IMG/VR virus record: IMGVR_UViG_3300044611_002008 | Span: 1-64,000 of that record | DNA: 64,000 bases | DNA from: an uncultured virus (IMG/VR IMGVR_UViG_3300044611_002008) | Lineage: Duplodnaviria; Heunggongvirae; Uroviricota; Caudoviricetes | Reading direction: 5' to 3' (one strand) | Shown here: positions 5,219 through 40,893 of the stretch, piece by piece | How the letters are laid out: each line of letters starts with the position of its first letter | How positions within the stretch are numbered: position 1 is the first letter of the stretch | Notes under the pieces: model-generated | The model's database searches: none | What the model saw: the letters and a program-made list of their open reading frames with translations, nothing else | What the model was told of the DNA's origin: nothing | Translations under genes and position numbers: made by a program

Positions 5219-5233
5219 CATATGGAGATTATT

Positions 5234-6736: not shown

Positions 6737-6751
6737 ATAAGGGAGAAACAC

Positions 6752-7210: not shown

Positions 7211-7223
7211 TAGGGAGAACAAA

Positions 7224-8231
7224 ATGTCAACGAAAACTCAGTTTCAACCTTCGCCAGAACTAACAGATCTTCTCGTTCGCTCTGGCTCACCAGATAGACA
7301 AGTTGCCTTAGCAGCCAACAGAGAGTTTGCTAAAGCACTAGAATTACCTTTACGTCAAGGTCTACTCAGTGGAGATATCCTAGACGGCATCTTCGAGCCA
7401 ATTCAGCTCCAGCCCGGTGCCACTCCAGAATTCCCACTAGATTTTCTTGCCCCTGGCACAGAAAAAGACTTTGTGGCTTACACTATCCCTAACCACGGTT
7501 ATATTCCAGAGCGTCATGTCGAAGGCGATTATGTCATGGTTCCAACCTATGACATCGGTGCCTCGATTGATTATCTCCTAAAGTATGCTCGTGACGCTCG
7601 CTGGGACGTTGTGGGTCGCGCTATGGAAGTGCTAGAAGCTTCGTTCGTAAAGAAAATGAACGACGACGGCTGGCACACACTCTTGGCCGCTGGTGTTGAT
7701 CGCAATATCGTTGTGTTCGACAGCGACGCTGCATCAAATCAGTTCACCAAGAGACTAGTCAGTCTCATGAAGACTGTTATGCGTAGAAACGGTGGCGGTA
7801 ATAGCGCTAGTGTCAACAGAGGTATGCTAACAGACCTCTATGTTTCACCAGAAGCTATGGAAGATATCCGCAACTGGGGTCTTGATCAGGTTGACGAAGT
7901 AACACGCAGAGAGATCTACACAGCCGCTGATGGTACTCTCAACCGTGTTTTCGGCGTTAATCTTCACGACAGAGACGAGCTTGGTGTTGGTCAAGAGTAT
8001 CAGCTATTCTATAGCAACGTACTCAATGGCACACTACCAAGTGGAGATACAGAAGTTGTTGTTGGTCTTGATCTACGCAAGAGAGACAGCTTCATTATGC
8101 CAGTTCGTGAACAGGTTCAAATCTTCGAAGACGAAACACTACATCGTCAGAAGAGAGCCGGTTTCTACGGCTGGAGCGAGCAGGGCTTTGCGGTTCTAGA
8201 TAATCGCAGAGTTATTCTCGGCTCTCTCTAA
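7224..8231 (+). CDS. Major capsid protein, HK97 fold inferred (probable start 7224)
   Basis: 335 aa, position after scaffold and decoration genes, GGGAG RBS at 7213-7217, C-rich third positions suggesting high expression, C-terminal GFAVLDNRRV, followed by a strong terminator. Confidence 0.88.
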   Translation: MSTKTQFQPSPELTDLLVRSGSPDRQVALAANREFAKALELPLRQGLLSGDILDGIFEPIQLQPGATPEFPLDFLAPGTEKDFVAYTIPNHGYIPERHVEGDYVMVPTYDIGASIDYLLKYARDARWDVVGRAMEVLEASFVKKMNDDGWHTLLAAGVDRNIVVFDSDAASNQFTKRLVSLMKTVMRRNGGGNSASVNRGMLTDLYVSPEAMEDIRNWGLDQVDEVTRREIYTAADGTLNRVFGVNLHDRDELGVGQEYQLFYSNVLNGTLPSGDTEVVVGLDLRKRDSFIMPVREQVQIFEDETLHRQKRAGFYGWSEQGFAVLDNRRVILGSL

Positions 8232-8264
8232 TTTAGACTCTACAATCAGTTACTATCTAAAGAT

Positions 8265-8298
8265 AGGGCCGGGAGAATATCCTGGCCCTTCTTTTTTT
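8265..8298 (+). terminator. Rho-independent terminator after the capsid gene
   Basis: Stem AGGGCCGGGA / TCCTGGCCCT (10 bp, one G-U), loop GAATA, then TCTTTTTTT. Confidence 0.88.
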
Positions 8299-8312
8299 AT
8301 ATATGTATTAAA

Positions 8313-8329
8313 GGTGTATCTATAATCAG
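8313..8329 (+). promoter_or_regulatory. GGTGTA upstream motif (GGTGTATCTATAATCAG)
   Basis: Intergenic, just after the terminator, 65 bp before the next ATG. Confidence 0.6.
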
Positions 8330-8377
8330 CAGGGCATTTTTCTGCCAAGTAAAAACTATATCAAAGGCATATAATAT

Positions 8378-8782
8378 ATGGCAGCTAGTAAATATGATTT
8401 CGCTATAGAACAAGGGACATCTTTTAAATTATCGTTAATATATAAAGACGCTAATGGAACGCCCGTAAATCTAACAGACTGGTGCGCTAGAATAGTATGG
8501 AAAACCAATACTGGTATTATTCAAACCTTTTCTTCTGACAACATAGATCATAGTGTATATAAATTTACTATTGATGATACTAATGGTAAATTAACATTAT
8601 TACTGCCTGTATCTACAACCAATGGGTTTAATTTTAATACGGCTAAATATGATCTAGAGCTACAATCTCCAGAAGATATTTATGCTGGCGGAGGCAAATA
8701 TACTACGAGGCTATTGTTTGGTACTATAAGTATAGTCAAGAGATTTAGTCAAGCAGGTTCTTCATTGGAGTGTTCTACATGA
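8378..8782 (+). CDS. Ig-like virion adaptor protein (BppU N-terminal-like)
   Basis: IEQGTSF...KDANGTPVNLTDW...AKYDLEL...RLLFG pattern; paralogous to the N-terminus of 39976..40893. Confidence 0.6.
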   Translation: MAASKYDFAIEQGTSFKLSLIYKDANGTPVNLTDWCARIVWKTNTGIIQTFSSDNIDHSVYKFTIDDTNGKLTLLLPVSTTNGFNFNTAKYDLELQSPEDIYAGGGKYTTRLLFGTISIVKRFSQAGSSLECST

Positions 8783-9042
8783 GTAATTTTATTTTGGAAA
8801 TACTTGACCCTCAGATACATCTTATAGAAGTAGAAACCAGTTTTGTTGATAATCTGAACAATATTGAGATAGAAAGATCAGAATCTTTTAATATTGAATT
8901 AATTAATACAGAAAAAATTTTGGCAAGCGACTTACCAGATAACATACCCATGAGTAAAATAGTAGGTAATTTAGATGTTGCTAGAATTAGTGGGTTGTCT
9001 GAGTATTTAGATGAGTATGAATTTGATTGCGGTACACCATAA
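8779..9042 (+). CDS. Small acidic virion protein ending in DCGTP (probable start 8779)
   Basis: ATGA overlap with the upstream stop; C-terminal FDCGTP mirrors VDGGTP of the next gene. Confidence 0.65.
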   Translation: MSNFILEILDPQIHLIEVETSFVDNLNNIEIERSESFNIELINTEKILASDLPDNIPMSKIVGNLDVARISGLSEYLDEYEFDCGTP

Positions 9043-9083
9043 CTATTTTTTATTCACATAAACATATATAAAGGTTAAATATC

Positions 9084-11261
9084 ATGGCAGTTCAAACAAG
9101 AATTCAGGTTCGCAGAGGAACTTTATCGCAATGGAACACAGCCGCAGCAGTGGCTGGTCAAGGTATTTTATACCAAGGAGAAATTGGATACGAAACAGAT
9201 ACTGGTCGGTTTAAAATAGGAGATGGAACTACTGCTTGGGGTAGTTTGTCATATGCTAGTGTTCTACCTTCTAATTTTGTTGCTGGAAGCGGCATCTCTT
9301 TAACCCCAGGCCTAAACGGCAGCACTATGACTATTAGTCTTAGTGATCCAACCATACAAGTAGGAGATATAACAGATTTCGCCGAGGGCGTAGACGATAG
9401 AGTTGCGTCGCTACTACAAGCTGGAAATAATATCTCTTTAACTTATAATGATACTGCTGGTACTTTAACTATTAATAGTAGTCTTGGTTTAGAAGAAGTA
9501 CAAGACGCTATCGGAGCCCATATTGTCGGAGGCTCTGGTATTAGCGTTAACTATAATGACACTAGCGGCAATACAACCATTAGCTTGAGTGATCCTACTA
9601 TTCAAGCTGCTGATGTTACGGATTTTAGCGAGGCTGTAGATGATAGAGTATCTAATCTATTAACAGCTGGTTCTGGTATAGGTTTGACCTATGACGATAA
9701 TGCTAATTCTCTACAGGTTCGTGTCACTGGAATTCCTAGTAGTTTAATAACAAACTTTACATCTAGTGTTAATGATCTTATCGACGGAGCTGTTAGCACA
9801 AGTATTGTTGCTGGTAGCGGTGTTGATATTATTTATAATAGTGGCAACAATACGCTAAGTATTAGTAGCGCTTTAACTGCTGGTAGTGGTATTGCTCTTA
9901 CTCATTCTAGTGGAGCTTATGTCGTATCTCTAAGCGATCCTTCTATTCAGCTTGTGGATATTACAGATATGACCACAGCAGTTAGAAACTTTTTAACAAC
10001 ACCATCTAGTGCTAATTTAGGATCTTTAGTTAGCGACGAAACGGGCACGGGCTCGCTAGTATTTGCTAATAATCCTACTATGAGCGGGGTGACAGTCAAT
10101 GGAAATCTTACTGTTAGTGGTAGTGGTCTAGTTGCTAGTAATATAAATAACTTTGACTCTCAAGTAAGAACCAGTCGTTTGGACCAAATGGCTGTTCCAA
10201 CAACCAGCGTGTCTCTGAATAGTCAAAGAATTACTAGTTTGGCCGATCCTGTTGCTGACCAAGATGCTGCAACAAAAGCTTATGTTGATGCTGCTCGCAG
10301 CGGATTGGACGTAAAACAAAGTGTTAGGGTGGCTACTACCGTAGCATTGACTCAAGAAGGAGAGCTTTCTTCTGTTTTTGCAAATTCTGGAGGAGCGGGC
10401 AATGGTAGTGGTTCCGGATCAGGATTTTTTATAATTGATGGAGTATCATTGAATGTTGGTGATAGGGTGTTAGTTAAAAATCAATCAGATGCTACAAAAA
10501 ATGGTATTTATAATGTTACTCCAAGCCCCACATATTCTGGACAGCAAATACTATCAAGGGCGCCAGATGCCAATAGTGATGCTGAAGTTACCGCTGGTAT
10601 GTTCGTATTTGTTACAGAAGGTACTGTCAATGCCGATAGTGGTTGGGTACTTACAACAAATGATACTATTACGCTTGGAACAACAGCTCTAACTTTTGCT
10701 CAATTCTCTGGTGCTGGTCAGATTACTGCTGGTGCTGGTATGGTCAAGAGCGGCAATACTCTAGATGTTGGTACTGCCAGTACTAGTCGAATTGTTGTAA
10801 ACGCAGACAATATTGATCTTGCTACAGTTACTCAGTCTGATGGTAGCGGATCAGCAGGCTCTACATTTGTTCAATCTGTTACTAGAGATAGTTATGGTAG
10901 AGTCACAGGAGTCACAACAGCGGCCGTGCAAGACGCAACAACTTCGGTTAAAGGTATTGCTAGTTTTGATACCGGAGACTTTAGCGTTAGCGGCGGTGCT
11001 GTTAGTATTAAAACCGGAGGTGTCGATAATAGTCAGCTTGCTAATAGTTCTGTCACAGTTGGCTCAACCAGTATCAGCCTTGGTGGATCAGCTACTACAA
11101 TAGCTGGTTTAACTAGTGTGTCTAGCACGAGTTTTACCGGGGCTTTGACTGGCAATGCTAGTACGGCTACAACTCTTCAAACAGCAAGGACTATTAACGG
11201 AACTAGTTTTAACGGTTCTGCTAATATTGAAATAGCGTTTGTAGACGGAGGAACTCCATGA
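9084..11261 (+). CDS. Fibre protein with Mtd_N-like N-terminus
   Basis: IQVRRGT...GEIGYETDTGRFKIGDG N-terminal domain, repeated DDRVxxLLxAGxxIxLxYxD units, DAATKAYVD / GDRVLVKNQ domain, C-terminal DGGTP. Confidence 0.8.
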   Translation: MAVQTRIQVRRGTLSQWNTAAAVAGQGILYQGEIGYETDTGRFKIGDGTTAWGSLSYASVLPSNFVAGSGISLTPGLNGSTMTISLSDPTIQVGDITDFAEGVDDRVASLLQAGNNISLTYNDTAGTLTINSSLGLEEVQDAIGAHIVGGSGISVNYNDTSGNTTISLSDPTIQAADVTDFSEAVDDRVSNLLTAGSGIGLTYDDNANSLQVRVTGIPSSLITNFTSSVNDLIDGAVSTSIVAGSGVDIIYNSGNNTLSISSALTAGSGIALTHSSGAYVVSLSDPSIQLVDITDMTTAVRNFLTTPSSANLGSLVSDETGTGSLVFANNPTMSGVTVNGNLTVSGSGLVASNINNFDSQVRTSRLDQMAVPTTSVSLNSQRITSLADPVADQDAATKAYVDAARSGLDVKQSVRVATTVALTQEGELSSVFANSGGAGNGSGSGSGFFIIDGVSLNVGDRVLVKNQSDATKNGIYNVTPSPTYSGQQILSRAPDANSDAEVTAGMFVFVTEGTVNADSGWVLTTNDTITLGTTALTFAQFSGAGQITAGAGMVKSGNTLDVGTASTSRIVVNADNIDLATVTQSDGSGSAGSTFVQSVTRDSYGRVTGVTTAAVQDATTSVKGIASFDTGDFSVSGGAVSIKTGGVDNSQLANSSVTVGSTSISLGGSATTIAGLTSVSSTSFTGALTGNASTATTLQTARTINGTSFNGSANIEIAFVDGGTP

Positions 11262-17355: not shown

Positions 17356-19956
17356 ATGACCTTAGTCAATACTCTTAGAACACAAGTAGACCTTCCAGTA
17401 TGGGAATGGCTGAGATTTGCTCCTGCTGCTTCTTCTGCCGTTAGTGCCTCGTGTTCAGCGGACAATAGCCTATATCACCCTAATCATGGCAGATACATAT
17501 ACTATCTTATAGGAACGAACAGCTTTTGGAGATATGACACTATTACAGATGCCTATCTACAGCTAGCAAATCCTCCCTATACGCCCACTACTGCCTCAAG
17601 TATGAGATTTGCTGGGGCTGTAGGGTACTATGGTCGTGTTATATCAGCTGGCGCTAATAATATGGTGTCATCGGCACATTATGGAGAAATTTTAAAAGGT
17701 TTTGATGTTCGCATCGTATCGGGCACAGGAGCAGGACAACAAAGAGTAATAACAGCTGTTTCCGATCCAGTAACTATAGACTCAGGTATTGCTACAGGTG
17801 TTTCATCCACAACTTCTTTGTTACAGATTACAGACTCTACCAAAAACTGGACAGCTAATCAATGGGTGGGATATCAGCTACGAATCACTTTTGGTTCTGG
17901 TATCAGTCAAGTGAGAAAAATATTATATAACAGTAATAATACATTAACGTTTGGTGACGTTAATTTATTTGCTACTAATCCATGGGACGCTATGGCTCCA
18001 TTAGGAACGGCTGTTTCTTCAACTGCTGGTTCTCAGACCGTATACTCTATTGAAAGTTCCACTATTACTGTTGATACCAACTGGGCTACACAGCCAGACG
18101 CTACATCTAGATTTATGGTACAGTCTGGTGGCGTGTTTTTATATACATATGCTACAGGCATTTCGGCTTATTATGATATTGCAGCAGATACGTGGTATTA
18201 TAGAAGTACTACGAACTTATCTAGCGGTACACCTACCGATCTCACCATAGAAAGACAAACCGAAAACTCTACAATATGGGAAAAGGGTGTCGCGACTTCA
18301 GGCACCACTACTACTTTAGTAGATAATACAAAACAATGGAAGGTTAATCAATTCGCCGGTTATTATGTTAGGATTTACACCGGTACTGGTGAGAATCAAT
18401 TGCGTCAGATAGTATCCAATACCGTGGATACTCTTACCTGGTCGGGATCTGGTACTTCCCCGGACTCGACCTCTAGATATCTTATAGAAGGACTAGACGC
18501 AGGAACCACGACTAGCGCTACTGCTACAGCGCTTGTTGATTCTACCAAATCGTGGGCGGTAGACAGATGGAAAAACATGTCTGTATATATTACATCTGGA
18601 TCAGGCGCGGGACAACAACGTAGTATTATATCCAATACCAGTACTACACTTACTGTGAGCCCCCCATGGAATACCAATCCAGATTCTACATCTACGTATA
18701 AAATACAAGGAGATTCTGATAAATTGTTCGTTATGTATGGTGGACAAGCTGCTGTGGTAGTTCATAATCTAGAACGAGATTCTATGTCTTATGGTAGAGA
18801 ATATGATAATGGTCTTTGTAGGAGCGGCTCCGCTAGATATGGTAGCGACTATGCCATTCCTATAACGTCAACGACCAGATCGGGAACTACCGCAACGGTC
18901 ACAACGGCAGTGCCTCACAACTTTAGAACTGGACAATCCATATCCCATCTTGGTGCCACAGGAGCAGATGCTGCGCTATATAATATTACAGCTAGCATAA
19001 CCGTTACCTCTACAACAACATATACTTATACAATGAGCGGTACTCCATCAGCTAATGCTGTGTTTAATACGATTTCAACGTCTGTTCTCGTAGATGCTGC
19101 TAAAAATTGGACAACTAATCAGTGGGCTGGTTATATTGTATATATGAACACCAATCAGACAAGTCCTGGAACAAGCACCAATACTGTACAAGCCTTTAGA
19201 ATAGCGTCTAATACAAGCAATACTTTAACTTTTCAAGCGGCTGGTACAGCCCCTGTTAATGGAGTATCTAGATATGTTATATCGACAGCTCCTGCTATCG
19301 GCGCGATAGATAGTGGTTTAGCCACAGGAACACAGAGTACTACTACTATACAGGACACCTCTAAGAATTGGGTAGTCAATATTTTCGCCGGTAGAAGAGT
19401 TAGATTTACCAGTGGTACGGGTATGAATCAAGAAGCCACTATATCATCTAATACAAGTAATACCTTGACCTTTTCAGCGGCTGTAACAACAGCAGCAGTA
19501 ACTGCGAATACTACTTATTCGATATTGGGCATACCAGCAAGAGGTGCGGGTATAGAGCTTAGCTGGAATCAGGGGTCTTCGGATCTTGCCAAAAGAGGCA
19601 GATTTATGTTTGTGGCTAGAGGTGGTGCCGCTTCTGGTTTTGATAGGCTTAACTTAAATACCGATACTTGGGATACTATAGTAGTTAGTCCACAATCAGA
19701 AACATTAACTACTGGTAGTATGTATATCTATGATGGACAAGATAGAATTTATTTTACTAAGGAAGCCACTTTAAGATGTTATTATTTAGATATAAATACT
19801 AATATAGTGCATGGGGCTGGTATCTACCCCTTCGTCGCTGGAACGGCTATCATAGGAAATAGAATGGAAATTTTTGAAACACCCGACCACTTGAAATATT
19901 TGTGGCTCAATAGACATTCTAATACTGAATGCTATAGATGTTTGTTATTTTATTAA
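17356..19956 (+). CDS. Kelch-like beta-propeller protein with inserted repeat domains
   Basis: Propeller-like blades at both ends (FWRYDTITDAY, FDRLNLNTDTW) and about six DxxKxWxxNxxxGxxVxIxxGxGxxQxRxIxSNT repeats. Confidence 0.7.
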   Translation: MTLVNTLRTQVDLPVWEWLRFAPAASSAVSASCSADNSLYHPNHGRYIYYLIGTNSFWRYDTITDAYLQLANPPYTPTTASSMRFAGAVGYYGRVISAGANNMVSSAHYGEILKGFDVRIVSGTGAGQQRVITAVSDPVTIDSGIATGVSSTTSLLQITDSTKNWTANQWVGYQLRITFGSGISQVRKILYNSNNTLTFGDVNLFATNPWDAMAPLGTAVSSTAGSQTVYSIESSTITVDTNWATQPDATSRFMVQSGGVFLYTYATGISAYYDIAADTWYYRSTTNLSSGTPTDLTIERQTENSTIWEKGVATSGTTTTLVDNTKQWKVNQFAGYYVRIYTGTGENQLRQIVSNTVDTLTWSGSGTSPDSTSRYLIEGLDAGTTTSATATALVDSTKSWAVDRWKNMSVYITSGSGAGQQRSIISNTSTTLTVSPPWNTNPDSTSTYKIQGDSDKLFVMYGGQAAVVVHNLERDSMSYGREYDNGLCRSGSARYGSDYAIPITSTTRSGTTATVTTAVPHNFRTGQSISHLGATGADAALYNITASITVTSTTTYTYTMSGTPSANAVFNTISTSVLVDAAKNWTTNQWAGYIVYMNTNQTSPGTSTNTVQAFRIASNTSNTLTFQAAGTAPVNGVSRYVISTAPAIGAIDSGLATGTQSTTTIQDTSKNWVVNIFAGRRVRFTSGTGMNQEATISSNTSNTLTFSAAVTTAAVTANTTYSILGIPARGAGIELSWNQGSSDLAKRGRFMFVARGGAASGFDRLNLNTDTWDTIVVSPQSETLTTGSMYIYDGQDRIYFTKEATLRCYYLDINTNIVHGAGIYPFVAGTAIIGNRMEIFETPDHLKYLWLNRHSNTECYRCLLFY

Positions 19957-22684: not shown

Positions 22685-25600
22685 ATGGGAAATTTAATTC
22701 CATCAAATAATAATGATGATAATTTAGACTTTAATCCAACCAAACTTCCTGGATGCAAGGTTTGGATAGATGCTACTGATGAATCTACACTATTTACCAC
22801 CGATTATCAAGGATCTGTAACTGTTCCTGATAATTTTACACCCACCAGTGTTGGCGGTTGCTCTACTTGGTATGATAGCTCTGATGCCTCTACATTATAT
22901 AATACTAGTGCTGGGCCAGTTACTGCGGTTTCTAGTCCAACAGAAGTTAGTGGGTGTGCTTTGTGGCTGGATGCTGCTGATAATACATCAATATATAAAA
23001 CTAATGTAGGACCACTATCTCCTGTATCTGCGCCTACAGACATTGGCGGTTGTCAATTCTGGCTTGATGCTTCAGATCCGGCTTCTATGTTTGAAGATAC
23101 AGCGGGACTCACTCCTTCTTCGGTGGGCAATACGGTTGGACTATGGAGAGATAAGAGCGGTAATGCCAGACATGTTCAGCAGGCAACCGGGTCTAAAAAA
23201 CCAATTCGGTCAACATCTGTCTTCTCTTCTGGAGCGGTGCATTTTGATGGCATAGATGATATCCTTTCTAATCAGACCGCTTCAGAATGGGGATGGGCTA
23301 CAGGAGGTAGTATGACATGGATCTTCGTTGGTCAACGAGGCGACACCCCGTCCGTATCATCAGATTATCGTTACTGGTTTGGAAACGGAGAGCCATTATA
23401 TCAATCAAACATCAATAGCTTCGGGATATTTGTAGAAGATCAAAATCCTCATAATGGTCGTTTACAATTTGTCATAAGCCAAGGTGGCGCCCACAATAAA
23501 CAGAACGTAACTTTTGATACAAATAGCTCCCCTGACGCAACAATATGGCTGCATACTCTGGCCTATGAAGCTTCTACTCCATCTGTATTCATGAGAGGAC
23601 AGGGCTCTGATCGCACAATTACAACGGTCAATACTAATGTCGCTACTAGCGGAGTGTCCCCGAATTTTGGTCTTTCGGTAGGAGCAGATTCTCACAACTC
23701 ATACGCTGGCTCTAGGTTCGGAGATATTAGGCTGGCCGAGGTCTGTGCTTTTAATCGCAGGTTGACGAATGATGAAATATATAGAGTTGAAAAATATCTA
23801 GCCGATAAGTGGAATATTTCTGATGTTAATGGTACCGTTACGAATAGCGGAGATACAATTGGAGCCTGGAGAGATAAAAGTGGCAACGGCTTCCATGCGA
23901 CTCAACTTAATAATAATCAAAGGCCTTCTAGAAATATTAATCCACAAAATAATTTACAGGGATTACAATTTTCTAATGCTAATTCAACATTATTAACTAC
24001 TCAAATATCGGGCTCTCTTACTAGTAGTACGCAAGACTATACTGTGTTTTTAGTATGTCAAAGAACAGCAGTTCATGATGGAGAAGTAATTTTAGGTAGG
24101 CGAACCCCGGGCTGTTACGCAAGCGCTTTGTACTACAATAATCCTGGAGCAAATTCAACAAATATTCAGTTTTATAACTCTGGACCAGAAATAGCTTTTC
24201 CAACAGAAGTCGGCATACCCACCTCCGTACAAATGATATGTTTATCTAGATCTGGATCTACTAATTATAGTGGATGGCAAGCAGGACTATCTTCTTTTAT
24301 CGATTCTTCTATGGGATCTGGCCCTGCATCGTCTCTGCTTTCTAATATTGGGGCATCGTGCAATGGGTCATCCGGAATGACCGGGTATATTTATGAAATT
24401 TTAGCATATAATCGTAATTTAACCAGAGAAGAAAGAGCTTCTGTCGAAAAGTACTTAGCTAATAAGTGGAATACAACAGACAACCACGTTGCAACAACCG
24501 CTAATAGCAAGGTAGGATATTGGGCAGATAAAACAGGAAATAATCGCCATGCTAGACAAGATGTTTCTAGCTATAGGCCATCATATTCAGGATCTATCAA
24601 CGACCTTCCTGCTATAACATTTGATGGGGCGGATGATCATTTTTTAATAGGGAATTTATCTGCTGTGTTTCCTACTTTTGGCGAAGTCTTTATTGTTTTT
24701 GAACCTGATAATACAGTATCGTATTCTCTTTATCAGACTAAAGTTAACTATGCGTATTTTACATATGACGGATCTAGTAATTTTGGATATTTTACTAATA
24801 ATAAATCAGCAACCTTCACTTGGGATAGGCCCAGGACTGGAACTAATATTACTTCTGTTCGGTCAGCATCTGGAACTTTATTTGTTAGATTGAATGGTAA
24901 TCACATATATTCGCAATCAGGTCTTGGTCACGACGGAGGAAACAATCACGCTATTGGTTTTACTTACTCGGGCGGAGGTGGAGTTTCGGGAGTCGTCATG
25001 AAAGGTAAAATAGTAGAAGTTATTACCTTTAATACTGATATAGGAACTGAAAATAGAGCACGGGTAGAACAATACTTGTCTAAAAAATGGGGTATGCAGA
25101 CTACATTGCATGACAAAAGCAGTCAGCCCGGAGAAAAAATAGGTTATTGGAAGAATAAAACAGATTTAAATTTTGCTCTTTCTCAGTATAGAATAGAAAA
25201 ACAAGGAGAAATTGGTTTTATTAATGGTAAAAGAGCCGTGTCTTTTGAAAATAATTCTGGCTTTTTACTTGCTTATCTAGCTAATACTGTACCGGGAGAG
25301 GAACTAAGTTTTTTTTGGGTTTGTAATATTACAAAGCCTGGTGTTAATAATCAAGTAGTTTTTAGATTTGGTAATTATAGTGGATATACTCAAATAGCAA
25401 AATTTGATGATCGTATAGAATATGGCGGAACTAATGGAATAACCATTAATAATCCTCCACAAACGAAGAACTTACCAATTATAGAATCTGTTATTAAAAG
25501 TAATGGAACAATATGGAATTCTACTAACGTTTATCGTAATGGTATTTTATTACCAAAGAACAACCTCGGAGTAGATGGTAACCTATCTACTGGATCTAAT

Positions 25601-28600
25601 GATGTATTGATTATAGCCGGTTATAGTTCGGATGCTAATTTTCTTGGTACCGGCGGTATGATCATAGGAGAGTTTATTTGTTACAATAGGGCTGTGAGCG
25701 ATCAAGAGCGCAAATTAGTTGAAAAATATCTGCACGATAAATGGAATATCAACAAATTAACTACATCTATATCTAAACCAACAGACATATCAAGATGCTC
25801 TATGTGGCTTGATGCGAATGACCCTAAAACACTATTTGTTGATACGGCGGCAAGTACTAATGTTTCAGCGGACGGACAAACTATTGCATACTGGGCTGAT
25901 AAAGTTTCTGGACAAGACGTTATTCAGGCTACGGTTTCTGCTCGCCCGACATATCGCACGAATATGCAAAATGGCAGACCTATGCTTTATTTTGATGGCG
26001 GAGACGATCTTTTATCTCAGGTAAATAGACCATATGCGGCTCCTTGCACACTATTTGTGGTGTGCAGAATAGATTCTCACTCCGGAGATGTTTCTGGTAT
26101 TGTGACACACGGAGATAGTACTGGAGGACTTAATGGTCCAGGATTTTGTTATATAGGATCAACGGCGGCAGGAGCTTGCTTGGTGTTTTTGGATGGTGCT
26201 GGCGCTGGTACAACCTCTTCTAGTAACACAAACTCTAGTATGCTGGGTTTGCCCAGGGTTATTACGGGAGTTTATAATCAAAGCAATACCTCCAATTCTC
26301 TAATATATGTGAATGGAAATCTAGAAGAAAACTTTACGGGTACCGGAGTTACATTAAACGCCGCAGCAAACAGAGTTCAAATAGGTGCAAGAACAGGAGG
26401 AGGGCAAACAGCCAGAAGAATGATCGGGTATGTTGCCGAATGTATCAGATATGATCGTGTATTAACAGATAATGAAAGAGCCATGGTTGAGAACTATCTC
26501 TCTGAAAAATGGGGATTAGGATCATACTCTTCACCAAATAGTATTGGATCGTCTATTGTTCGACACAACATTAAAGTCTCCAATAAAGATGCTCAAAATT
26601 GGGTAGATAGAGTTTTTCAAAACGGAGGAAGCGTTAGTGAACGAACAGCGGATCGGGTCAACTCTTTATGCAATAGAATAGACGCTGCTGGAATTAGAAA
26701 GAAATTTTATAGAGTTAACTTATTTTGTGGTAATGACCTAGCTGCTTGCTTAACGCCGTTATATTTGGGTCCTGATAATAATACATTTTATGGAAGTAGA
26801 ACGGATACAAATAACGGTTTTGTAGGACCTAATTATGATGAAAAAAATGGGCTGATTTCAACAGCACAGGGAAACCATTTATTGACAGGAGTATCTTTTG
26901 ATGCTATAGGAGCGTCAGATTTTGGTCATATGGCTTTTTATCAGACTCAATACAATATCGATACTAATGAATATGCTGGTGGTAACAGAGTAGTTATGGG
27001 CGGTGGATCAATTAGTATTGCTTTTTTTGATACCACAGACGGACACTATTTAGGTTCTAACTATGGGCCGTTTGTGCCGACAAGAAGCTCTTATTTCGGG
27101 GGTTTATTTGTATCAAATAGAAGCAGTGCTACCAATTTTAAATCGTATGAACAAGGTAGCACCGTTTCCCAAAACTCTCTTAATATGTTGTATCAAACAC
27201 CCCAAACATCACAGATCGGCATATTTACTAATGGATCAGTAGGAGCTTCTGGTTTCACATATATTTCCGGATATCTTAAAGGGTATAGTTTTGGCCATAG
27301 CATGTCTGATGCGGAAGTATCAACATATAGTAGTATTATGGAAGATTTCCAAACGTCTCTTGGAAGAGGACTCCCAATTCGACCATCGGCACAATTCGCC
27401 TCCGTTACAAATAGCGAAGCTAAATCTTGGATAGATGCTGTTTATACTAATAATGGCACTGTAAGTATCAGTACGGCTTTGGCTGTTAATAATTTTTGTA
27501 ATAGTATAGATGCTGCTGGATTACGAAATAAGTTTTATAGACTTAATTTATTCTGTGGAAATACTATTAATAGTTGCTTAGTGCCTTTATATAGAGCACC
27601 AGCTCGCCTAGGTCCTAGATATGGCAATCAAAATGACATTAATATACCTATATCATACGGATACTATGTTAATTCTGACGATTTTAACTATATAGAAAAT
27701 CAAGGATTGTTAGGAAATACTCAAGAAATTGCTGGAAATAGCAATATTTCTAGAAGATATTTAGACACTGGTCTTATTACAGGATCTATTAGTCAGTTAA
27801 ATAACGACATGCACTATGCTATTTATAGCAAAGATCTAACTAGTGGTGGATATGCTATGGGAGCATATGATGGTGCTAGTACAGGATTTTCATTACAAAT
27901 AGGTTTGGCCGGGTATAATGTTGGAGCTTTTGCTAATGCTCGGTTAAATCAAACTAATACCTCAACCACAGCTATATATCCAACAAGAAAAGGACTTTAT
28001 GTTGGTAATTATTCTAATTACATACTTAATCTTTATGAGGGTAGAGCTAATGTGGTGGGACAGCGAGATCTAACGTTTGCAAATGCTTTGAATCCCACCA
28101 CAGTTAGTACTGTTTCAATTTTTGCTGAAAATAGAGTAGGAAACGGCATTGCTCTATTTAATTATTTGGATAGATTACAAGGCTATTCTATAGGAACATC
28201 ATTAACATCTGCTGATGTACAGAATTACTACGATATAATGCAAACTTTCCAAGCGGCATTATCACGAGCACAACAAACAACACTAAGTTCAACTTTTGAT
28301 AGTATCACTAATGCTGATGCTAGAGATTGGCTTACTAGAGTATATGAAAACGGTGGAACTGTCAGCCTGTCAACCGCAACTGCTGTACAAAATTTTTGTA
28401 ACACTATAGATTCTGCCGGATTAAGAAGCAGGTTCTTTAGACTCAATTTATTCTGTGGAGACAACTTAAATGCTGCTACTGTACCTCTTTATAGAGGACA
28501 GGGTGTTAGCAGTACACAGCATGGATTTCTAATTGATATAAATACTAACTTTACTAGTTCCGACTATAATCAGAGCGGTAGTTTTGCTGGTATTAAGGGC

Positions 28601-31594
28601 AATGGTTCAAATAAAAGGTTAGACACCGGACTTGGCACAGATTATACTAATAATTCTAGTATATCTTTTGGAGCATTTATTTCTGAGCCTACATCCAAAG
28701 CATTTAGTACCTATCTAGGAGTCGCCCAAAACACTAATGCAGATACGACCGTTTTGTATTATAGAGATGGATTTACTAGAGGGTTGGATGGTGCCACATA
28801 CTATCCAGCTGAACCAACCAACTCTACTCTTTTTGGTTATCATGTTTATTCTAGGACAGCCGGTAATAATTTCTTCCATTCTTGGAACGGAATATCTGGC
28901 TCATCATCCAATTCCGTGTCTGCAGCCAGAGGATCAGACGGATTTGTTATTCACGCTCTAAATAATAACGGAACACTAGCGAATTACGGAGATGGTAGAA
29001 TTTCAATGTATCATATAGGCTTAGGATTAACTTCGGCCGAAACCGTTACTCTTTACAACGCCATCGATGCGTTCAATACGTCTATGGGTCGAACAAGACC
29101 AAGCGCTTCTTTTGCATCAGTTACGAATGAAGATGCGAAGATTTGGGTAGATAATGTATACTATAATGGCGGCACGGTATCTAGTACTACAGCAAATCTT
29201 CTTAATACGTTTTGCAATAGTATAGATTCTGCTGGTCTTAGGGGTAAAATCTATCGATTAAATTTGATGTGCGGAAATAATGTGAATGCAGCGAGTGTTC
29301 CGCTGTACAAAGGAATTGATCGCACTATTCAGTATGGTAGTTTAATTGACGCTAACAATAACTTTACTAGTTCGGATTATGTTGAAACAGGAGTAGGGGC
29401 AGGGTTACGTGGTGATGGATCCACCAAATTTTTGAATACTGGTTTGGCCCCCAATAAACTTCCCGACAATCTCCGAACAGGACATATTGGCATATATATG
29501 ACCAAAAGCAGTCAATCTAATAACAGAAGATTGATAGGCACAACTAACGACTTAAATAATGACAGATTTCAAATAAATCATGCTGTCTTATCTAATACTA
29601 TGTCTGCGGTTTTTAGCGGATCGGGGGGTGGTGGTACAATAATATCTTATAAAAACAATGCTCAAGAACTTTATGTAGTTAATCGCAATGCCAATAATAG
29701 CGCTAGATTTTATACTGGAGGAGTAGGAGGCGTAGTTACAACCACTAATATTAGCGGTCAGTTATCAGACACAAACCCTAATTCTTTTGTTATTTTAGCT
29801 ACAAATAGTAGTGCTGGTGTATCCTCGCACTCTGACGCTACTGTTGCTGGTTATACCATAGGCTTGCCGCTCACAGACTCCGAACACAACGTATTATATC
29901 AAATTATAGAAACATTTAATTTGGGTTTAAATAGAGGTAGATCTAGTACTGGATTTGCGGGAATAGATAATGAAGACGCTAAAATTTGGATAGATACGGT
30001 ATACTCTAAGGGCGGTTCGGCATCGTCTAGCACCGCTAATTTGGTTAATACTTTTTGTAATAGTATAGACGCTGCCGGATTAAGAAATAAATTCTATCGA
30101 GTTAATTTATTTTGCGGAAACGGCTTGGAGTCTTGTTTAACGCCGATATATTGTAGCCAAACAACTTCTGGAATCAGATACGGAGGCGTAGAAGACACAA
30201 ATAATAACTTTGTATCAGCTGACTATAGTGAAAATAGTGGATTAATAGGCAACGCCTCAAATAAGTGGCTAGACACTATGCTGCCACAAAATTTTGCTAC
30301 ATATAGACATTTGGGCGTGGTTATGAATAAGTTACCTTCTGCGCCATACAGAATGATTATGGGCGCAAAAACCAATGCCGCTACGCTCGACTGGACTTCT
30401 GATACCAGACTACAAACAGATGTTGGTACAAATGTAGCAAGTTTTTGGACAGGTAATGCGTCTGGACAACTATCCACAGGTATTAGTATGTTAATGACGG
30501 AAAAAACATTTGTGATTGGTCTTACCGATAGTGATGGGTTGAATAAGCTATATTCGGATACTTTAACCACCAATTCTGTTAACACTATCAGTGCCCCAGA
30601 TACTACTTCTATAGGAATATTTGCTCAAAAAATAGGAGCAACAAGTGTTGGTAGTACTCATACAGACGCTAGATTGTCTTTATATACTATTGGTATAAAT
30701 TTAACAAGTTCAGAAATAGCCACACTAACATCTATTATAGACGCATTTAATGATGGTCTTGCTAGAGGCAAACCAAGCAACACCTTCGCTTCCGTAACAA
30801 ACAATGATGCTAAACTATGGATTAATAGAGTTTATACAAATGGAGGTTCTATATCTTCTAATACTGCTAGCTCTGTAAATAGTTTTTGCAATAGTATTAA
30901 TGCAAATGGTTTGAGAGATAAATTTTATAGATTAAATCTATTTTGTGGAAACAATCTAGTTTCTGCTTTGACTCCGTTATATTTAGGCCCTTCAGCTACT
31001 GTTCTTTATGGATCTCATATTGATATTAATAATAATTTTATAGCTTCCGATTACTCAGAAACTTCTGGATTACAAGGGTCTTTTTCTGGTAATAAGTATT
31101 TGTTGACCAATTTGGCTCAATCGGTTTTAACCACGAATAATCGCCACTTATCTGCTTATGAAACGGTAAAAAATACGCGAGGTTATGGAGCTTTAATAGG
31201 ATCCGATAATGGAGCTAGTAATGTTAGCTCATGGAGTATCAGCGCAAACGGAGAGGCCTCTTCTATGGGATATTATTCAGGGGCTGGGAATGATTATGTT
31301 TGGGGTACTTCTTATACTCCTCCTACTTTTTGGTTAGGTACAGGCTCTTCTACTCAAGGAAGGATTTATAAAAACGGGATATTTGACGTTGACGGTTCGA
31401 CCGTTGTAACCCCCGGAACTCCAGGATCGTCCACAATTGGGATTTTTAACAAAAATTCATCAACACATGGCCCAGGCGTACTAACAAATGCTGCTATAGG
31501 AATGTATTCGGTGGGATTATCTTTTACGGATGCTGAAATTATTAGCTTAAATCAGATATTAAACGCTTTTAATAGTAATATTTTACGGGCTTAA
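22685..31594 (+). CDS. Giant lectin-like repeat protein (5 LamG/ConA-like domains plus 6 second-type repeats)
   Basis: 2969 aa; WxDAxD, WxDKSG and E..YL..KW motifs five times; DA..W...V...GG...FCNxIDxAGLRxKFYRLNLFCG repeat six times. Confidence 0.8.
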   Translation: MGNLIPSNNNDDNLDFNPTKLPGCKVWIDATDESTLFTTDYQGSVTVPDNFTPTSVGGCSTWYDSSDASTLYNTSAGPVTAVSSPTEVSGCALWLDAADNTSIYKTNVGPLSPVSAPTDIGGCQFWLDASDPASMFEDTAGLTPSSVGNTVGLWRDKSGNARHVQQATGSKKPIRSTSVFSSGAVHFDGIDDILSNQTASEWGWATGGSMTWIFVGQRGDTPSVSSDYRYWFGNGEPLYQSNINSFGIFVEDQNPHNGRLQFVISQGGAHNKQNVTFDTNSSPDATIWLHTLAYEASTPSVFMRGQGSDRTITTVNTNVATSGVSPNFGLSVGADSHNSYAGSRFGDIRLAEVCAFNRRLTNDEIYRVEKYLADKWNISDVNGTVTNSGDTIGAWRDKSGNGFHATQLNNNQRPSRNINPQNNLQGLQFSNANSTLLTTQISGSLTSSTQDYTVFLVCQRTAVHDGEVILGRRTPGCYASALYYNNPGANSTNIQFYNSGPEIAFPTEVGIPTSVQMICLSRSGSTNYSGWQAGLSSFIDSSMGSGPASSLLSNIGASCNGSSGMTGYIYEILAYNRNLTREERASVEKYLANKWNTTDNHVATTANSKVGYWADKTGNNRHARQDVSSYRPSYSGSINDLPAITFDGADDHFLIGNLSAVFPTFGEVFIVFEPDNTVSYSLYQTKVNYAYFTYDGSSNFGYFTNNKSATFTWDRPRTGTNITSVRSASGTLFVRLNGNHIYSQSGLGHDGGNNHAIGFTYSGGGGVSGVVMKGKIVEVITFNTDIGTENRARVEQYLSKKWGMQTTLHDKSSQPGEKIGYWKNKTDLNFALSQYRIEKQGEIGFINGKRAVSFENNSGFLLAYLANTVPGEELSFFWVCNITKPGVNNQVVFRFGNYSGYTQIAKFDDRIEYGGTNGITINNPPQTKNLPIIESVIKSNGTIWNSTNVYRNGILLPKNNLGVDGNLSTGSNDVLIIAGYSSDANFLGTGGMIIGEFICYNRAVSDQERKLVEKYLHDKWNINKLTTSISKPTDISRCSMWLDANDPKTLFVDTAASTNVSADGQTIAYWADKVSGQDVIQATVSARPTYRTNMQNGRPMLYFDGGDDLLSQVNRPYAAPCTLFVVCRIDSHSGDVSGIVTHGDSTGGLNGPGFCYIGSTAAGACLVFLDGAGAGTTSSSNTNSSMLGLPRVITGVYNQSNTSNSLIYVNGNLEENFTGTGVTLNAAANRVQIGARTGGGQTARRMIGYVAECIRYDRVLTDNERAMVENYLSEKWGLGSYSSPNSIGSSIVRHNIKVSNKDAQNWVDRVFQNGGSVSERTADRVNSLCNRIDAAGIRKKFYRVNLFCGNDLAACLTPLYLGPDNNTFYGSRTDTNNGFVGPNYDEKNGLISTAQGNHLLTGVSFDAIGASDFGHMAFYQTQYNIDTNEYAGGNRVVMGGGSISIAFFDTTDGHYLGSNYGPFVPTRSSYFGGLFVSNRSSATNFKSYEQGSTVSQNSLNMLYQTPQTSQIGIFTNGSVGASGFTYISGYLKGYSFGHSMSDAEVSTYSSIMEDFQTSLGRGLPIRPSAQFASVTNSEAKSWIDAVYTNNGTVSISTALAVNNFCNSIDAAGLRNKFYRLNLFCGNTINSCLVPLYRAPARLGPRYGNQNDINIPISYGYYVNSDDFNYIENQGLLGNTQEIAGNSNISRRYLDTGLITGSISQLNNDMHYAIYSKDLTSGGYAMGAYDGASTGFSLQIGLAGYNVGAFANARLNQTNTSTTAIYPTRKGLYVGNYSNYILNLYEGRANVVGQRDLTFANALNPTTVSTVSIFAENRVGNGIALFNYLDRLQGYSIGTSLTSADVQNYYDIMQTFQAALSRAQQTTLSSTFDSITNADARDWLTRVYENGGTVSLSTATAVQNFCNTIDSAGLRSRFFRLNLFCGDNLNAATVPLYRGQGVSSTQHGFLIDINTNFTSSDYNQSGSFAGIKGNGSNKRLDTGLGTDYTNNSSISFGAFISEPTSKAFSTYLGVAQNTNADTTVLYYRDGFTRGLDGATYYPAEPTNSTLFGYHVYSRTAGNNFFHSWNGISGSSSNSVSAARGSDGFVIHALNNNGTLANYGDGRISMYHIGLGLTSAETVTLYNAIDAFNTSMGRTRPSASFASVTNEDAKIWVDNVYYNGGTVSSTTANLLNTFCNSIDSAGLRGKIYRLNLMCGNNVNAASVPLYKGIDRTIQYGSLIDANNNFTSSDYVETGVGAGLRGDGSTKFLNTGLAPNKLPDNLRTGHIGIYMTKSSQSNNRRLIGTTNDLNNDRFQINHAVLSNTMSAVFSGSGGGGTIISYKNNAQELYVVNRNANNSARFYTGGVGGVVTTTNISGQLSDTNPNSFVILATNSSAGVSSHSDATVAGYTIGLPLTDSEHNVLYQIIETFNLGLNRGRSSTGFAGIDNEDAKIWIDTVYSKGGSASSSTANLVNTFCNSIDAAGLRNKFYRVNLFCGNGLESCLTPIYCSQTTSGIRYGGVEDTNNNFVSADYSENSGLIGNASNKWLDTMLPQNFATYRHLGVVMNKLPSAPYRMIMGAKTNAATLDWTSDTRLQTDVGTNVASFWTGNASGQLSTGISMLMTEKTFVIGLTDSDGLNKLYSDTLTTNSVNTISAPDTTSIGIFAQKIGATSVGSTHTDARLSLYTIGINLTSSEIATLTSIIDAFNDGLARGKPSNTFASVTNNDAKLWINRVYTNGGSISSNTASSVNSFCNSINANGLRDKFYRLNLFCGNNLVSALTPLYLGPSATVLYGSHIDINNNFIASDYSETSGLQGSFSGNKYLLTNLAQSVLTTNNRHLSAYETVKNTRGYGALIGSDNGASNVSSWSISANGEASSMGYYSGAGNDYVWGTSYTPPTFWLGTGSSTQGRIYKNGIFDVDGSTVVTPGTPGSSTIGIFNKNSSTHGPGVLTNAAIGMYSVGLSFTDAEIISLNQILNAFNSNILRA

Positions 31595-35106: not shown

Positions 35107-35464
35107 TCTCATGTCGCCAACGACCGTTAATGGAAAAACAACATATTTAACGCTCGCAAACACAACAGAAACCAATCTTTTAGTTAATGCAGCTAACTCC
35201 GATGCTGCTATAAAAATAGTATCTATTTATGCAGCGAATATTGACGGAGTGGTTTCGGTCGATTGTACTTTGAGGATATACAATTCCGCCACGGCTGGAA
35301 CGGGTTTTCCAATCGTCAATACCGTTACTGTTCCAGCGGATGCTACCGTTGTTTTAGTAGGCAGAGACGCTCCAATTTGGCTTGAAGAAGACAGAAGGCT
35401 CACAGTTCAGGCTAGTGCGGGTGGAGATCTGACAATTGTGTGCTCTTATGAAGAGGTGCGTTGA
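35093..35464 (+). CDS. Small beta-sandwich fibre adaptor protein
   Basis: PNL...NGKT...KIVSIYAANIDG...TVPADATVVL...LEED...SYEE pattern of small virion proteins that precede lectin genes. Confidence 0.7.
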   Translation: MVTPNLMSPTTVNGKTTYLTLANTTETNLLVNAANSDAAIKIVSIYAANIDGVVSVDCTLRIYNSATAGTGFPIVNTVTVPADATVVLVGRDAPIWLEEDRRLTVQASAGGDLTIVCSYEEVR

Positions 35465-36279
35465 TGGGTGTTGTTTTTCGAGAAGGAAACATGATAGGAG
35501 CAACAAGAACATCTTCATTATCTGCTGGTAATGGAATTTGGAATATTTATGAGATTGAAAATAGGAATAGACGGAATCAGTGGCCAGTTCAGATAGTCGG
35601 AGATGGATTGCAAATGAATATGGATGCGGGCATTCCCGAGTCATATGCCGGGTCGGGTAGCACATGGAATGATTTAAGCGGAAACAATCGTCACGTAACA
35701 TTGGTTAACTCTCCCTCATACAGTTCAAATAACGGGGGATTTTTAAGTTTCAACGGAACCAACCAGAGTGCAAACCGAACATACGAAAACATCGGAACAA
35801 ACAACTTTTCATTAGACGTGTGGGCGAGACCAACCGCGACCATAACCGTTAACGCCCAGGCCACTTCTGGAACAACAGGATTGACAGGACAAAGATATCT
35901 TCTTTTCCCAGCTCAGTCCGCAACAAACGGTGGAGCAGGAATATCTCTTGGGACGAACGGCCTCAGTGTTTATGAGCATGGAAACGCTTATCTCGCCCCT
36001 TTATTATCTCATGCTGTAGCCATATCCAATACTATTTTTACTAATATTGTCATTGTTTATACCAACAAACTGCCAAGTCTGTATATCAATAATGTTTTTA
36101 TAAAAAATGGGTTTACGAGTCTGAGAGCAAGCGTTTTTTATAATTCGGGAGAGTTTATCGCCGGTCAATACGGTCTTTTCTCGGGTGCTGTGAGTAGCGT
36201 TAAAATATATAACAAATCGCTTTCGGCAAGCGAGATATCTCAAAACTTCAATGCTCTCCGAAACAGGTATGGTGTTTAA
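35464..36279 (+). CDS. LamG/ConA-like lectin protein
   Basis: DGLQMNMDAG.PESYAGSGSTWNDLSGN...FNGTNQ...KIYNKSLSASEISQNFNALRNRYGV; TGATG overlap with the upstream stop. Confidence 0.82.
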   Translation: MGVVFREGNMIGATRTSSLSAGNGIWNIYEIENRNRRNQWPVQIVGDGLQMNMDAGIPESYAGSGSTWNDLSGNNRHVTLVNSPSYSSNNGGFLSFNGTNQSANRTYENIGTNNFSLDVWARPTATITVNAQATSGTTGLTGQRYLLFPAQSATNGGAGISLGTNGLSVYEHGNAYLAPLLSHAVAISNTIFTNIVIVYTNKLPSLYINNVFIKNGFTSLRASVFYNSGEFIAGQYGLFSGAVSSVKIYNKSLSASEISQNFNALRNRYGV

Positions 36280-37073
36280 TGGGAAAAAGATTTGCAAATA
36301 CAATAGGAAACGCAAACACTCCCACAGATTTACTAGCTAGTGGAGTTTGGTCTTTAGATCAAGTAAGTTCATCTATTAGGAATAATCAATGGCCAAGTAT
36401 CGTTGATGGACTAATACTATTTTTTGATGCAGCAAACCCAAACAGCTATCCTGGATCTGGCACTGTTGTAAACGATGTTAGTATAAATAGGAATTCAGGC
36501 ACATTATTAAACGGCGTTGGATATTCTTCGCTAAATAGTGGCTATTTTACATTTGATGGGGTAAATGATTCAATAGTCATGAATAACACAATGTCATCGC
36601 TTACAGATTTTAGCATAGAAACTTGGTTTTTTTTGACGACAACGGATGCAAACTATAGAGAGTTGTTTACTTCTGGTCTTCTGGGAATTAGATTTGGTAA
36701 TACTGGATTTGGAGACAGGCTTCAAGTAGGGGTTGATTTGAGCACGGTCAATGGTTGTTTTAATACAAGCTTAAATAAAGCGGGCGCGGTCAATACCTGG
36801 AGACATTTATGTTGGACTAGACAGTCAGGAGTTAATAGAGTTTTTCTTGGTGGGGTTCAGCAAAATTTGGCGCAAGGCACTGGATTTACATATAATTTGA
36901 CTTCTTTTACAAATGGCACCGGTGTCACTCTGGTTAGTACTTCTGCTGCTTGGGGTTCTGGCGGCGGTCGGTTTTTAGGACGACTGCCTGTTTTGAGAAT
37001 TTATAACAGAGCTTTATCGCAATCAGAAATTTCTTCCAATTTCAATCAATTGAGAGGAAGATATGGTGTCTAA
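36279..37073 (+). CDS. LamG/ConA-like lectin protein (paralog of the upstream gene)
   Basis: DGLILFFDAANPNSYPGSG...FDGVND...RIYNRALSQSEISSNFNQLRGRYGV; shared N-terminal G.W.....NQWP motif. Confidence 0.82.
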   Translation: MGKRFANTIGNANTPTDLLASGVWSLDQVSSSIRNNQWPSIVDGLILFFDAANPNSYPGSGTVVNDVSINRNSGTLLNGVGYSSLNSGYFTFDGVNDSIVMNNTMSSLTDFSIETWFFLTTTDANYRELFTSGLLGIRFGNTGFGDRLQVGVDLSTVNGCFNTSLNKAGAVNTWRHLCWTRQSGVNRVFLGGVQQNLAQGTGFTYNLTSFTNGTGVTLVSTSAAWGSGGGRFLGRLPVLRIYNRALSQSEISSNFNQLRGRYGV

Positions 37074-39975: not shown

Positions 39976-40893
39976 ATGGCAGCTATTACTTACGACTTCA
40001 ATATAGAGCAAGGGTCTTATTACGAAATTACATTTGTCTATCAGGACCCTAATGGTAATCCTGTAGATATATCCGACTGGTGCGCCGTACTCCAGTGGAC
40101 AGACTCGAATAATAATAGGACAGTATTTAGTAATAGAAATAAAAATTTAAATTATGACTTATCTACTTATTCGGATGGCAGGATAACATTTAGTCTACCG
40201 GCTACTACAACGAATACATACTCTTTTGATTTTGCTTTATACGATCTGGATCTTCAAGAACCCAATGAGCAATATCAGGGTAGCGGCTATAGAACTTTTA
40301 GATTGTCTACAGGAAGGGCGTTTATTATAAGAAGATCTAACCCCCAAGAACTAATCACCAACTGTATAGATTTACCATCAACAGAATCTGTATGTCCAAC
40401 AGAATGCTTATCAACAGATATTTATGCTGTTAAATATTCTGGTGGAGGCATTAATATTCCAGATAATGGATCAGCCTCTTCGACTATACAAATAACAGAC
40501 ACCAGAACCATCGAGAATATAGAACTAGCAATCAACGGGTTGGTGCATAAAAATCCACAAGATCTAGTCTTTGTTTTAGTTCCACCAACAGGGTCGTCTA
40601 TTCTACTGTCGGCAAATCAAAAAATTAAAAATTATAGACCAGGATTCAATTATATTATTTCTGATTCCGCTCCTGCGGATGCCTACTTACATAATATAAC
40701 TAATAATAGTAAATGTAGAATTTATGATAAGACACAGATTATCAATTCTGATTCCCCGTTGGTCCCCTCCTTTGTCCATCTGCAAAACCAGCTGGCTAAT
40801 GGAACCTGGGAATTGTTAATTGAAGATACCGATCCAAGCGAGTCCGGCAGTATCGTTTCTTGGACCCTGATAGTCACATATCATTCAGAATAA
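39976..40893 (+). CDS. Ig-like adaptor domain fused to proprotein-convertase P-domain
   Basis: N-terminus paralogous to 8378..8782. C-terminus IPDN...STIQI...H....DLVFVLVPPTG...NGTWELLIED....SGSIVSWTL matches the P-domain pattern. Confidence 0.72.
   Translation: MAAITYDFNIEQGSYYEITFVYQDPNGNPVDISDWCAVLQWTDSNNNRTVFSNRNKNLNYDLSTYSDGRITFSLPATTTNTYSFDFALYDLDLQEPNEQYQGSGYRTFRLSTGRAFIIRRSNPQELITNCIDLPSTESVCPTECLSTDIYAVKYSGGGINIPDNGSASSTIQITDTRTIENIELAINGLVHKNPQDLVFVLVPPTGSSILLSANQKIKNYRPGFNYIISDSAPADAYLHNITNNSKCRIYDKTQIINSDSPLVPSFVHLQNQLANGTWELLIEDTDPSESGSIVSWTLIVTYHSE

Follow-up and report, generated by a model that had tools for sequence, protein, structure and literature searches.

The window analyzed here is a 64,000-nucleotide stretch of DNA (positions 1 to 64,000) of the uncultured virus record IMGVR_UViG_3300044611_002008 of IMG/VR, whose source genome is a single 99,836-base contig of a tailed phage. 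The order along the window is terminase (943), portal (3029), the gene studied here (22685) and tape measure (47666). The N-terminal part of the protein encoded by this gene matches PHROG 10356, 'virion structural protein' (E 2e-63). In this part, four LamG-like domains very probably lie nested one inside the other, so that a short first piece (head) of the three outer domains is separated from the remainder (body). The features of the gene, given in window positions and in amino acids (aa) of the protein, are the following:

22685..31594, + strand: whole structural gene, 2969 aa, with four nested LamG-like domains, an intact fifth and six tandem repeats of ~280 aa
22730..22819, + strand: head 1, aa ~16-45, Trp27; first strand of the outermost domain, predicted to be completed by body 4
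22835..22921, + strand: head 2, aa ~51-79, Trp62; predicted to be completed by body 3
22931..23017, + strand: head 3, aa ~83-111, Trp94; predicted to be completed by body 2
22982..23878, + strand: candidate exchangeable cassette, aa ~100-398, comprising the tail of head 3, the entire inner domain and the return linker
23027..23812, + strand: innermost uninterrupted domain (head 4 and body 1), aa ~115-376; most variable layer
23813..24469, + strand: return linker and body 2, aa 377-595, from motifs and structure model
24470..25090, + strand: return linker and body 3, aa 596-802, from motifs and structure model
25091..25744, + strand: return linker and body 4, aa 803-1020, from motifs and structure model
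25772..26512, + strand: intact fifth domain in ordinary tandem position, aa ~1030-1276; Pfam Laminin_G_3 above cut-off
26567..31591, + strand: six tandem repeats of ~280 aa, from start motifs; a second, unnamed viral domain family

Heads, body starts and body ends are each marked by a motif, and position-specific models of the three motifs were trained on the homologue set. The Trp of the head motif was located at aa 27, 62, 94, 126 and 1041, that of the body start at aa 154, 395, 613, 822 and 1070, and the body-end motif at aa 376, 595, 802, 1020 and 1276. These are exactly the positions given in the initial annotation of the sequence. Its description of four heads in a row followed by four bodies, only the first with an adjacent head, was also confirmed; bodies 1 and 5 are the only ones with an adjacent head (28 and 29 aa away, respectively). 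Bodies 2 to 4 begin 18-20 aa past the end of the preceding body, and this gap is too short for a head. Above 8 bits, each of the three models gave 0 matches in ~139,000 positions of 60 shuffled proteins; the pattern of heads and bodies is therefore not due to chance. A Pfam scan recognized Laminin_G_3 in the fifth domain, which is intact, and in no other (28.7 bits with a cut-off of 27.6, E 1.7e-6); the four N-terminal pieces scanned singly gave no match, and no RTX or Ig family was detected. Repeat-based annotation thus miscounts proteins of this kind, since Pfam detects one of the five domains here.

The arrangement would be explained by four copies of a LamG/concanavalin A (ConA)-like beta-sandwich, each placed in the surface loop after the first strand of its predecessor, with the layout H1[H2[H3[H4-B1]B2]B3]B4 over the N-terminal 1020 residues. 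On its outward path the chain would lay down three heads of 32-35 residues before the innermost domain folds whole. On the return path three bodies would follow, each closing around its own head, so that neighboring domains would be tied by two linkers.

The fold of aa 1-1026 was predicted by AlphaFold2 from an alignment of 13 sequences. The model had a predicted local distance difference test score (pLDDT) of 72.6 and a predicted template modelling score (pTM) of 0.64, the five models scoring 72.6, 70.7, 70.3, 55.4 and 52.1. The 10-residue blocks of aa 21-160 score 79-93 in it, and aa 219-285, in the innermost domain, lie below 50. Each of the three outer heads is predicted to contain one long strand (E24-29, E59-64 and E91-96). 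When the model was aligned to solved single-domain structures, all 50 rows spanned a nested head-body pair. Head 1 and body 4 were joined in 26 rows, which start at aa 1-23 and end at aa 1014-1026; 20 rows joined head 3 and body 2 (79-89 to 593-602), and 4 joined head 2 and body 3 (44 to 802). A search without prefilter gave 40 nested rows out of 50, 9 body-only rows and one multi-domain row at a root-mean-square deviation (rmsd) of 21; head 2 and body 3 again accounted for 4 of the 50 (46-57 to 784-796). No crossed single-domain range was present in the 100 rows of both searches, and the innermost domain of the query was covered by no row of the structure search. The modelled split domains aligned with AbnA domain 4, GH54, trans-sialidase and the Pan3 tailspike at Z scores of 16.6-20.6, over 189-233 residues and with rmsd of 2.6-4.0. 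In the model, then, the three split domains are of the ConA-like beta-sandwich fold, and the pairs are head 3/body 2, head 2/body 3 and head 1/body 4, as the initial annotation had forecast. Concerning sequence searches of the PDB, domain 5 gave no match and a two-layer profile retrieved only PilC (E 0.073).

The homologues show the same bookkeeping. Spare heads, that is, heads not followed by their own body, were found in 65 of 191 database proteins, the query included, and in 64 of these the number of spare heads equalled the number of headless bodies, with balanced brackets (one spare head in 46 proteins, two in 4, three in 13 and four in 1). The sole mismatch was P0103, a protein of 88 aa. 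When the counts were shuffled 10,000 times among the 65 proteins, the best trial had 46 matches, a figure that is not a probability since the proteins are kin. Neither spare heads nor headless bodies were found in 113 of the 191, although some of these have undetected heads, their gaps being roomy enough. The counts were also balanced in all 44 complete open reading frames (ORFs) with a spare head among the 156 complete ORFs of the related loci; the 44 include the query's own gene, the last end motif was missed in two, and 76 cut ORFs were set aside. A search using the heads alone retrieved 43 longer proteins, 36 of them tandem and 7 balanced two-layer, and no heads-only domain turned up in it. 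The architectures comprised two, three and four layers, paired inner domains side by side and, in P0001, five levels plus a branch. Thus nesting depth varies while head and body counts stay equal, and the heads were not seen to form a domain of their own, two points on which the recursive insertion proposed in the initial annotation had been made to depend; together with the pairing in the model, they support it. The step from head to head is 32 aa in 147 of 174 cases and that from body to body 18-19 aa in 137 of 163, fixed lengths that suggest a single origin for this insertion site. The best 44 loci found with the two-layer profile came from viral contigs (E < 1e-28); the same profile gave only two strong matches in the genome collection (L085 and L108). 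A search of the annotated phage collection found no match. The family PF26628 is listed for several homologues.

Conserved residue pairs link heads to bodies as well. Among the couplings between head and body in 763 intact domains, the one between Asp(+5) of the head and Lys(+3) of the body is the strongest (z 14.6); the Trp of the head is coupled to the final body residues. The Asp is kept in 145 of 168 spare heads versus 720 of 826 intact domains, and the Lys in 150 of 157 headless bodies versus 717 of 826, so that split halves are on a par with intact domains. Judged by these sequence couplings, the head is part of the fold. Judging the profiles by eye, the two split halves together make up roughly the 28-29-residue loop of those intact domains that have a long loop.

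We found several natural pairs in which the same domain occurs with and without an insert. P0016 begins inside the nest, and its full-length cluster mate P0234 holds the three heads that the bracket logic requires. P0234 has the same layout as P0001 except for the domain starting at Trp367, which an insert divides in P0001 but which P0234 has in one piece; the intact and split versions are identical at 16 of 17 head residues and 159 of 182 body residues (measured on P0016). Three-layer proteins P0012 and P0014 are the empty counterparts of four-layer P0006, P0010 and P0015, and the body directly after their third head is 82% and 73% identical, respectively, to the headless second body of P0006. 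The reading that three-layer relatives are missing head 3 and body 2 was rejected, as body-2-type sequence follows their third head and it is the inner domain that is absent. In P0052 the middle layer corresponds to the entire inner domain of L145, L159 and P0110. The spare head closest to the head of the empty form was the bracket partner in 9 of 9 informative comparisons, which have at least two spare heads each and come from three groups, chain position contributing to the result; four further pairs, of lower identity and with one spare head per nest, were uninformative.

The inner domain of the query also occurs in another host. It is identical at 228 of 251 residues to the insert at 399-649 of P0001, and both its linkers travel with it (24 of 32, 8 of 9 and 6 of 10 identical). 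The host sequence on either side instead matches another domain of P0001 (11 of 13 residues on the head side and 114 of 196 on the body side). This cassette is bounded by the W-x-D-x-x-D head motif and the W-x-D-K-S-G body motif, both of which are present in intact domains too. That the inner domain moves as a cassette between motifs of intact domains suggests how nesting repeats. When the query was compared with 12 four-layer relatives, heads 1-2 had the highest median identity (86.5%), followed by body 3 (61%), body 4 (37%) and body 2 (33%). The inner domain had the lowest (27%), so it is the tip of the nest that turns over most. Judged from sequence, self-insertion also appears to have occurred at other places: just past the body-start motif in L187:5171-10105 and L092:1-5238, and deeper in the body in P0026 (aa 1052-1732), where the insert consists of two inner domains. 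These insertions at other loops suggest separate origins.

Nesting may thus spread by recombination, with the head motif and the body-start motif as its sites. Such an exchange would replace the short loop of an intact domain by a head tail, a whole domain and a return linker, or the reverse, and a double crossover at the two motifs would keep the head and body counts equal in one step. We consider the nested fold, supported by the model and by the homologues, to be very probable, and its spread by cassette exchange, to which the mosaic and the filled and empty pairs point, to be likely; the explanation as a whole is one in which we place high confidence.

Several observations weigh against this explanation. 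The fold was predicted from an alignment of only 13 sequences, all sharing one architecture, with two of the five models at 52-55, and the structure aligner reports the first and last aligned residues of a range, not contacts. The branched relative P0111 folded with a pLDDT of 60.9, its outer body at low confidence, and its forecast outer domain (~aa 15-719) appeared in 0 of 100 rows, all of which were filled by the first inner domain. The homologues share ancestry, so their counts are not independent events, and 13 of the 191 have a headless body for which no spare head was detected. Nine of these 13 are explained (four begin inside a domain, four have a divergent second head at the N-terminus and one has another insertion site) and four are not (P0031, P0038, P0048 and P0115). 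In the filled and empty comparisons, bracket partner and adjacent head score equally in 2 of 9 pairs, and the adjacent head is ahead in 1 of 9. Finally, covariation ranked the nested pairing first in 1-7 of 17 proteins depending on the setting (3.7 expected by chance), although it placed it above the in-order pairing in 10-16 of the 17. With a cross-validated accuracy of 0.49-0.71 and ranks unstable over seven settings, covariation was dropped as evidence on pairing.

Equal counts suit any one-to-one scheme, so heads could complete bodies in sequence order (head 1 closing body 2, and likewise down the chain) or in some other one-to-one arrangement; the in-order pairing is one that covariation put first for the query at the smallest settings; or, since the model is a monomer, heads could be swapped between subunits in the manner of exchanged strands. 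We hold this to be quite improbable, since crossed single-domain ranges are missing from the 100 rows and the filled and empty pairs place the bracket partner beside its body; in-order pairing would shift every partner, yet the three-layer relatives retain heads 1-2 and bodies 3-4 unchanged. Still harder to credit is that bodies 2-4 fold without the extra heads, which would then be degenerate repeats of 32 residues or form a small separate domain. The nine body-only rows would fit this, but six are of pentraxin type and pentraxins skip the head in an intact domain too, so that these rows reflect pentraxin topology. P0103 does consist of heads only, but it departs from the family sequence after ~residue 76 in a frameshift-like way. 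Moreover, head and body counts rise together from depth 2 to depth 5, and both halves keep their member of the Asp-Lys pair. A more serious competitor, although an unlikely one, accepts the nest as real and has it deepened by separate tandem duplications of heads and bodies, unbalanced forms being purged by selection. Neighboring heads with near-identical tails in P0052 speak for it, and the first nest is beyond cassette exchange, as it requires an illegitimate insertion or such duplications. Yet the bodies of nested proteins are old paralogues: those of the query are 24-31% identical to one another, and a single within-protein pair above 40% was found among 297 bodies. The same inner domain with both linkers occurs in different hosts (the query, P0001 and P0013), and the empty forms have an ordinary loop and no fused junction, which argues against such duplications.

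As to function, the protein would be an accessory virion protein displaying many domains of carbohydrate-binding type, with the innermost and most variable one probably farthest from the C-terminal anchor. A surface-binding role in the virion is putative, and we favor it only slightly; the labels carbohydrate binding and adhesin come from likeness of fold and from gene context. The start motifs of the six ~280-aa repeats were found by pattern at aa 1306, 1882, 2154, 2435 and 2712, and by eye near aa 1590. The Atlas neighbors of these repeats are unnamed viral clusters, and the nearest named ones are Laminin_G_3 (24% of members) and GH54 catalytic (58%), a weak likeness to ConA-like families. 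This domain type closes most nested relatives, its motif being present in 98 of 135 nested proteins versus 15 of 288 others. Tentatively, and with slightly less than even confidence, the family can be seen as a self-propagating nesting system, driven by recombination, that builds and reshuffles tree-shaped displays of binding domains in phage populations. Because intact domains carry both cassette-bounding motifs, any domain could become host for another; if the proposal is true, single steps would deepen the nest, branch it or swap its tip, varying what the virion sticks to. The natural insertion loop accepts several hundred residues, which is useful for the design of doubly linked multidomain scaffolds.

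The gene lies among fibre-like, collagen-like and decoration-like genes, and its aa 1-1026 were found as identical copies in loci L001 and L002. In the seven related loci scanned, the gene comes shortly after the portal or the portal and major head gene in three, and is placed among DNA-metabolism genes in two, fibre-like genes in one and mostly unnamed genes in one. L014, a 204-kb phage contig, carries two adjoining nested genes (3730-6939 and 7134-9746), one branched and one two-layer. Counted over the loci with duplicates kept, an unnamed gene of ~104 aa lies immediately downstream of 45 of 54 nested genes versus 9 of the 122 LamG-like genes of other layout (examples are L016:8223-8540, L020:9003-9314, L022, L024, L043, L059, L152 and L159). 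It was looked for in the query genome and not found; an anchor or a chaperone is a possible product. Giant downstream ORFs of ~2000 aa and more without PHROG matches include L221:12518-18481 and L222:18-6518.

Within the window, ~35 kb of accessory genes (8378-43125) separate the head genes from the tail tube and tape measure genes. They include Mtd_N, DUF285 with fn3, glycine-rich, collagen-like, glycosyltransferase-like and P-domain genes. Two adjoining single-domain genes (35461-36279 and 36279-37073; 272 and 264 aa) both match PHROGs 24074 and 8510, the latter labelled virion structural protein, and the first also matches PHROG 10356 weakly; their products are probably more distant LamG-like proteins. 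At 17356-19956 an 866-aa protein shows, by eye, about seven copies of the short motif DxTKxW..NxxxG, flanked by N- and C-terminal parts resembling halves of one propeller-type domain. A family search gave no good match for it, and it may be another inserted-repeat architecture. Paralogues of PHROG 1084 at 8378-8782 and 39976-40350 are 42% identical, one being free and one fused to a P-domain. The tape measure protein (47666-58774) is very long, with 3702 aa.

Most homologues are plain head-body repeats. Uncultured phages encode tandem LamG-like ('Concanavalin A-like lectin/glucanase') proteins that, like PHROG 10356, belong to the same domain family but show no nesting. The closest solved fold to head 3 plus body 2 is the tailspike of cyanopodophage Pan3 (PDB 9vyh), with Z 20.6, rmsd 3.0 and 214 of 269 residues aligned at 14% identity. 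It is likewise a phage virion protein, but a single uninterrupted domain; a literature search for a paper on this tailspike found none. Among the matches listed in BFVD none went beyond about one domain's worth (template modelling score no higher than 0.21 by query). Split domains of RTX adhesins such as AhLap of Aeromonas hydrophila are described, in the available text of PMC12077191, as projecting ligand-binding domains after their first strand. There, as in the query heads, the insert emerges past the first strand of the host, and its termini are adjacent, which the coupling of the head to C-terminal residues suggests for the query too. However, in the adhesins an Ig-like or RTX-roll host carries an insert of another fold, whereas in the query host and insert are of the same family and the step is repeated three times; the query is not a member of that group.

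The nearest parallel is Si3 of the cyanobacterial RpoC2 (beta') subunit. According to the accessible text of PMC13114784, it is a six-level recursive insertion of sandwich-barrel hybrid motifs (SBHM), and in that of PMC10895346 SBHM-2 to -5 are assembled from distant sequence parts. The first source also describes simple single-level insertions as dominant, nested ones as a minority of domain insertions and inserts as usually smaller than their hosts; the word 'concanavalin' is absent from its main text. The initial annotation had remarked that no four-deep self-nesting was known for a phage adhesin. Deep self-nesting is known, and deeper, in Si3 as these texts present it, so the recursive principle is already described. 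The phage part of the remark is uncontradicted: a literature search, thin on subscription journals, found no paper on self-nested LamG or phage proteins, and the LamG instance has no precedent that we found. From what the two sources present, the likeness to Si3 is close, as host and insert are homologous, the insert is itself a host over several levels and the chain goes out and back. The query works like Si3 but is not a member, having another fold and belonging to a phage structural gene rather than to the trigger loop of an RNA polymerase. Si3 repeats a small barrel motif within an essential enzyme, whereas the unit here is a 230-260-aa beta-sandwich of a phage structural protein, host and insert are equal in size and the depth is four (five in P0001). 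In contrast to Si3, layers are gained, lost and swapped here among close relatives, and the natural filled and empty pairs capture the gain or loss of a single layer, which makes the origin of recursive architectures directly testable.

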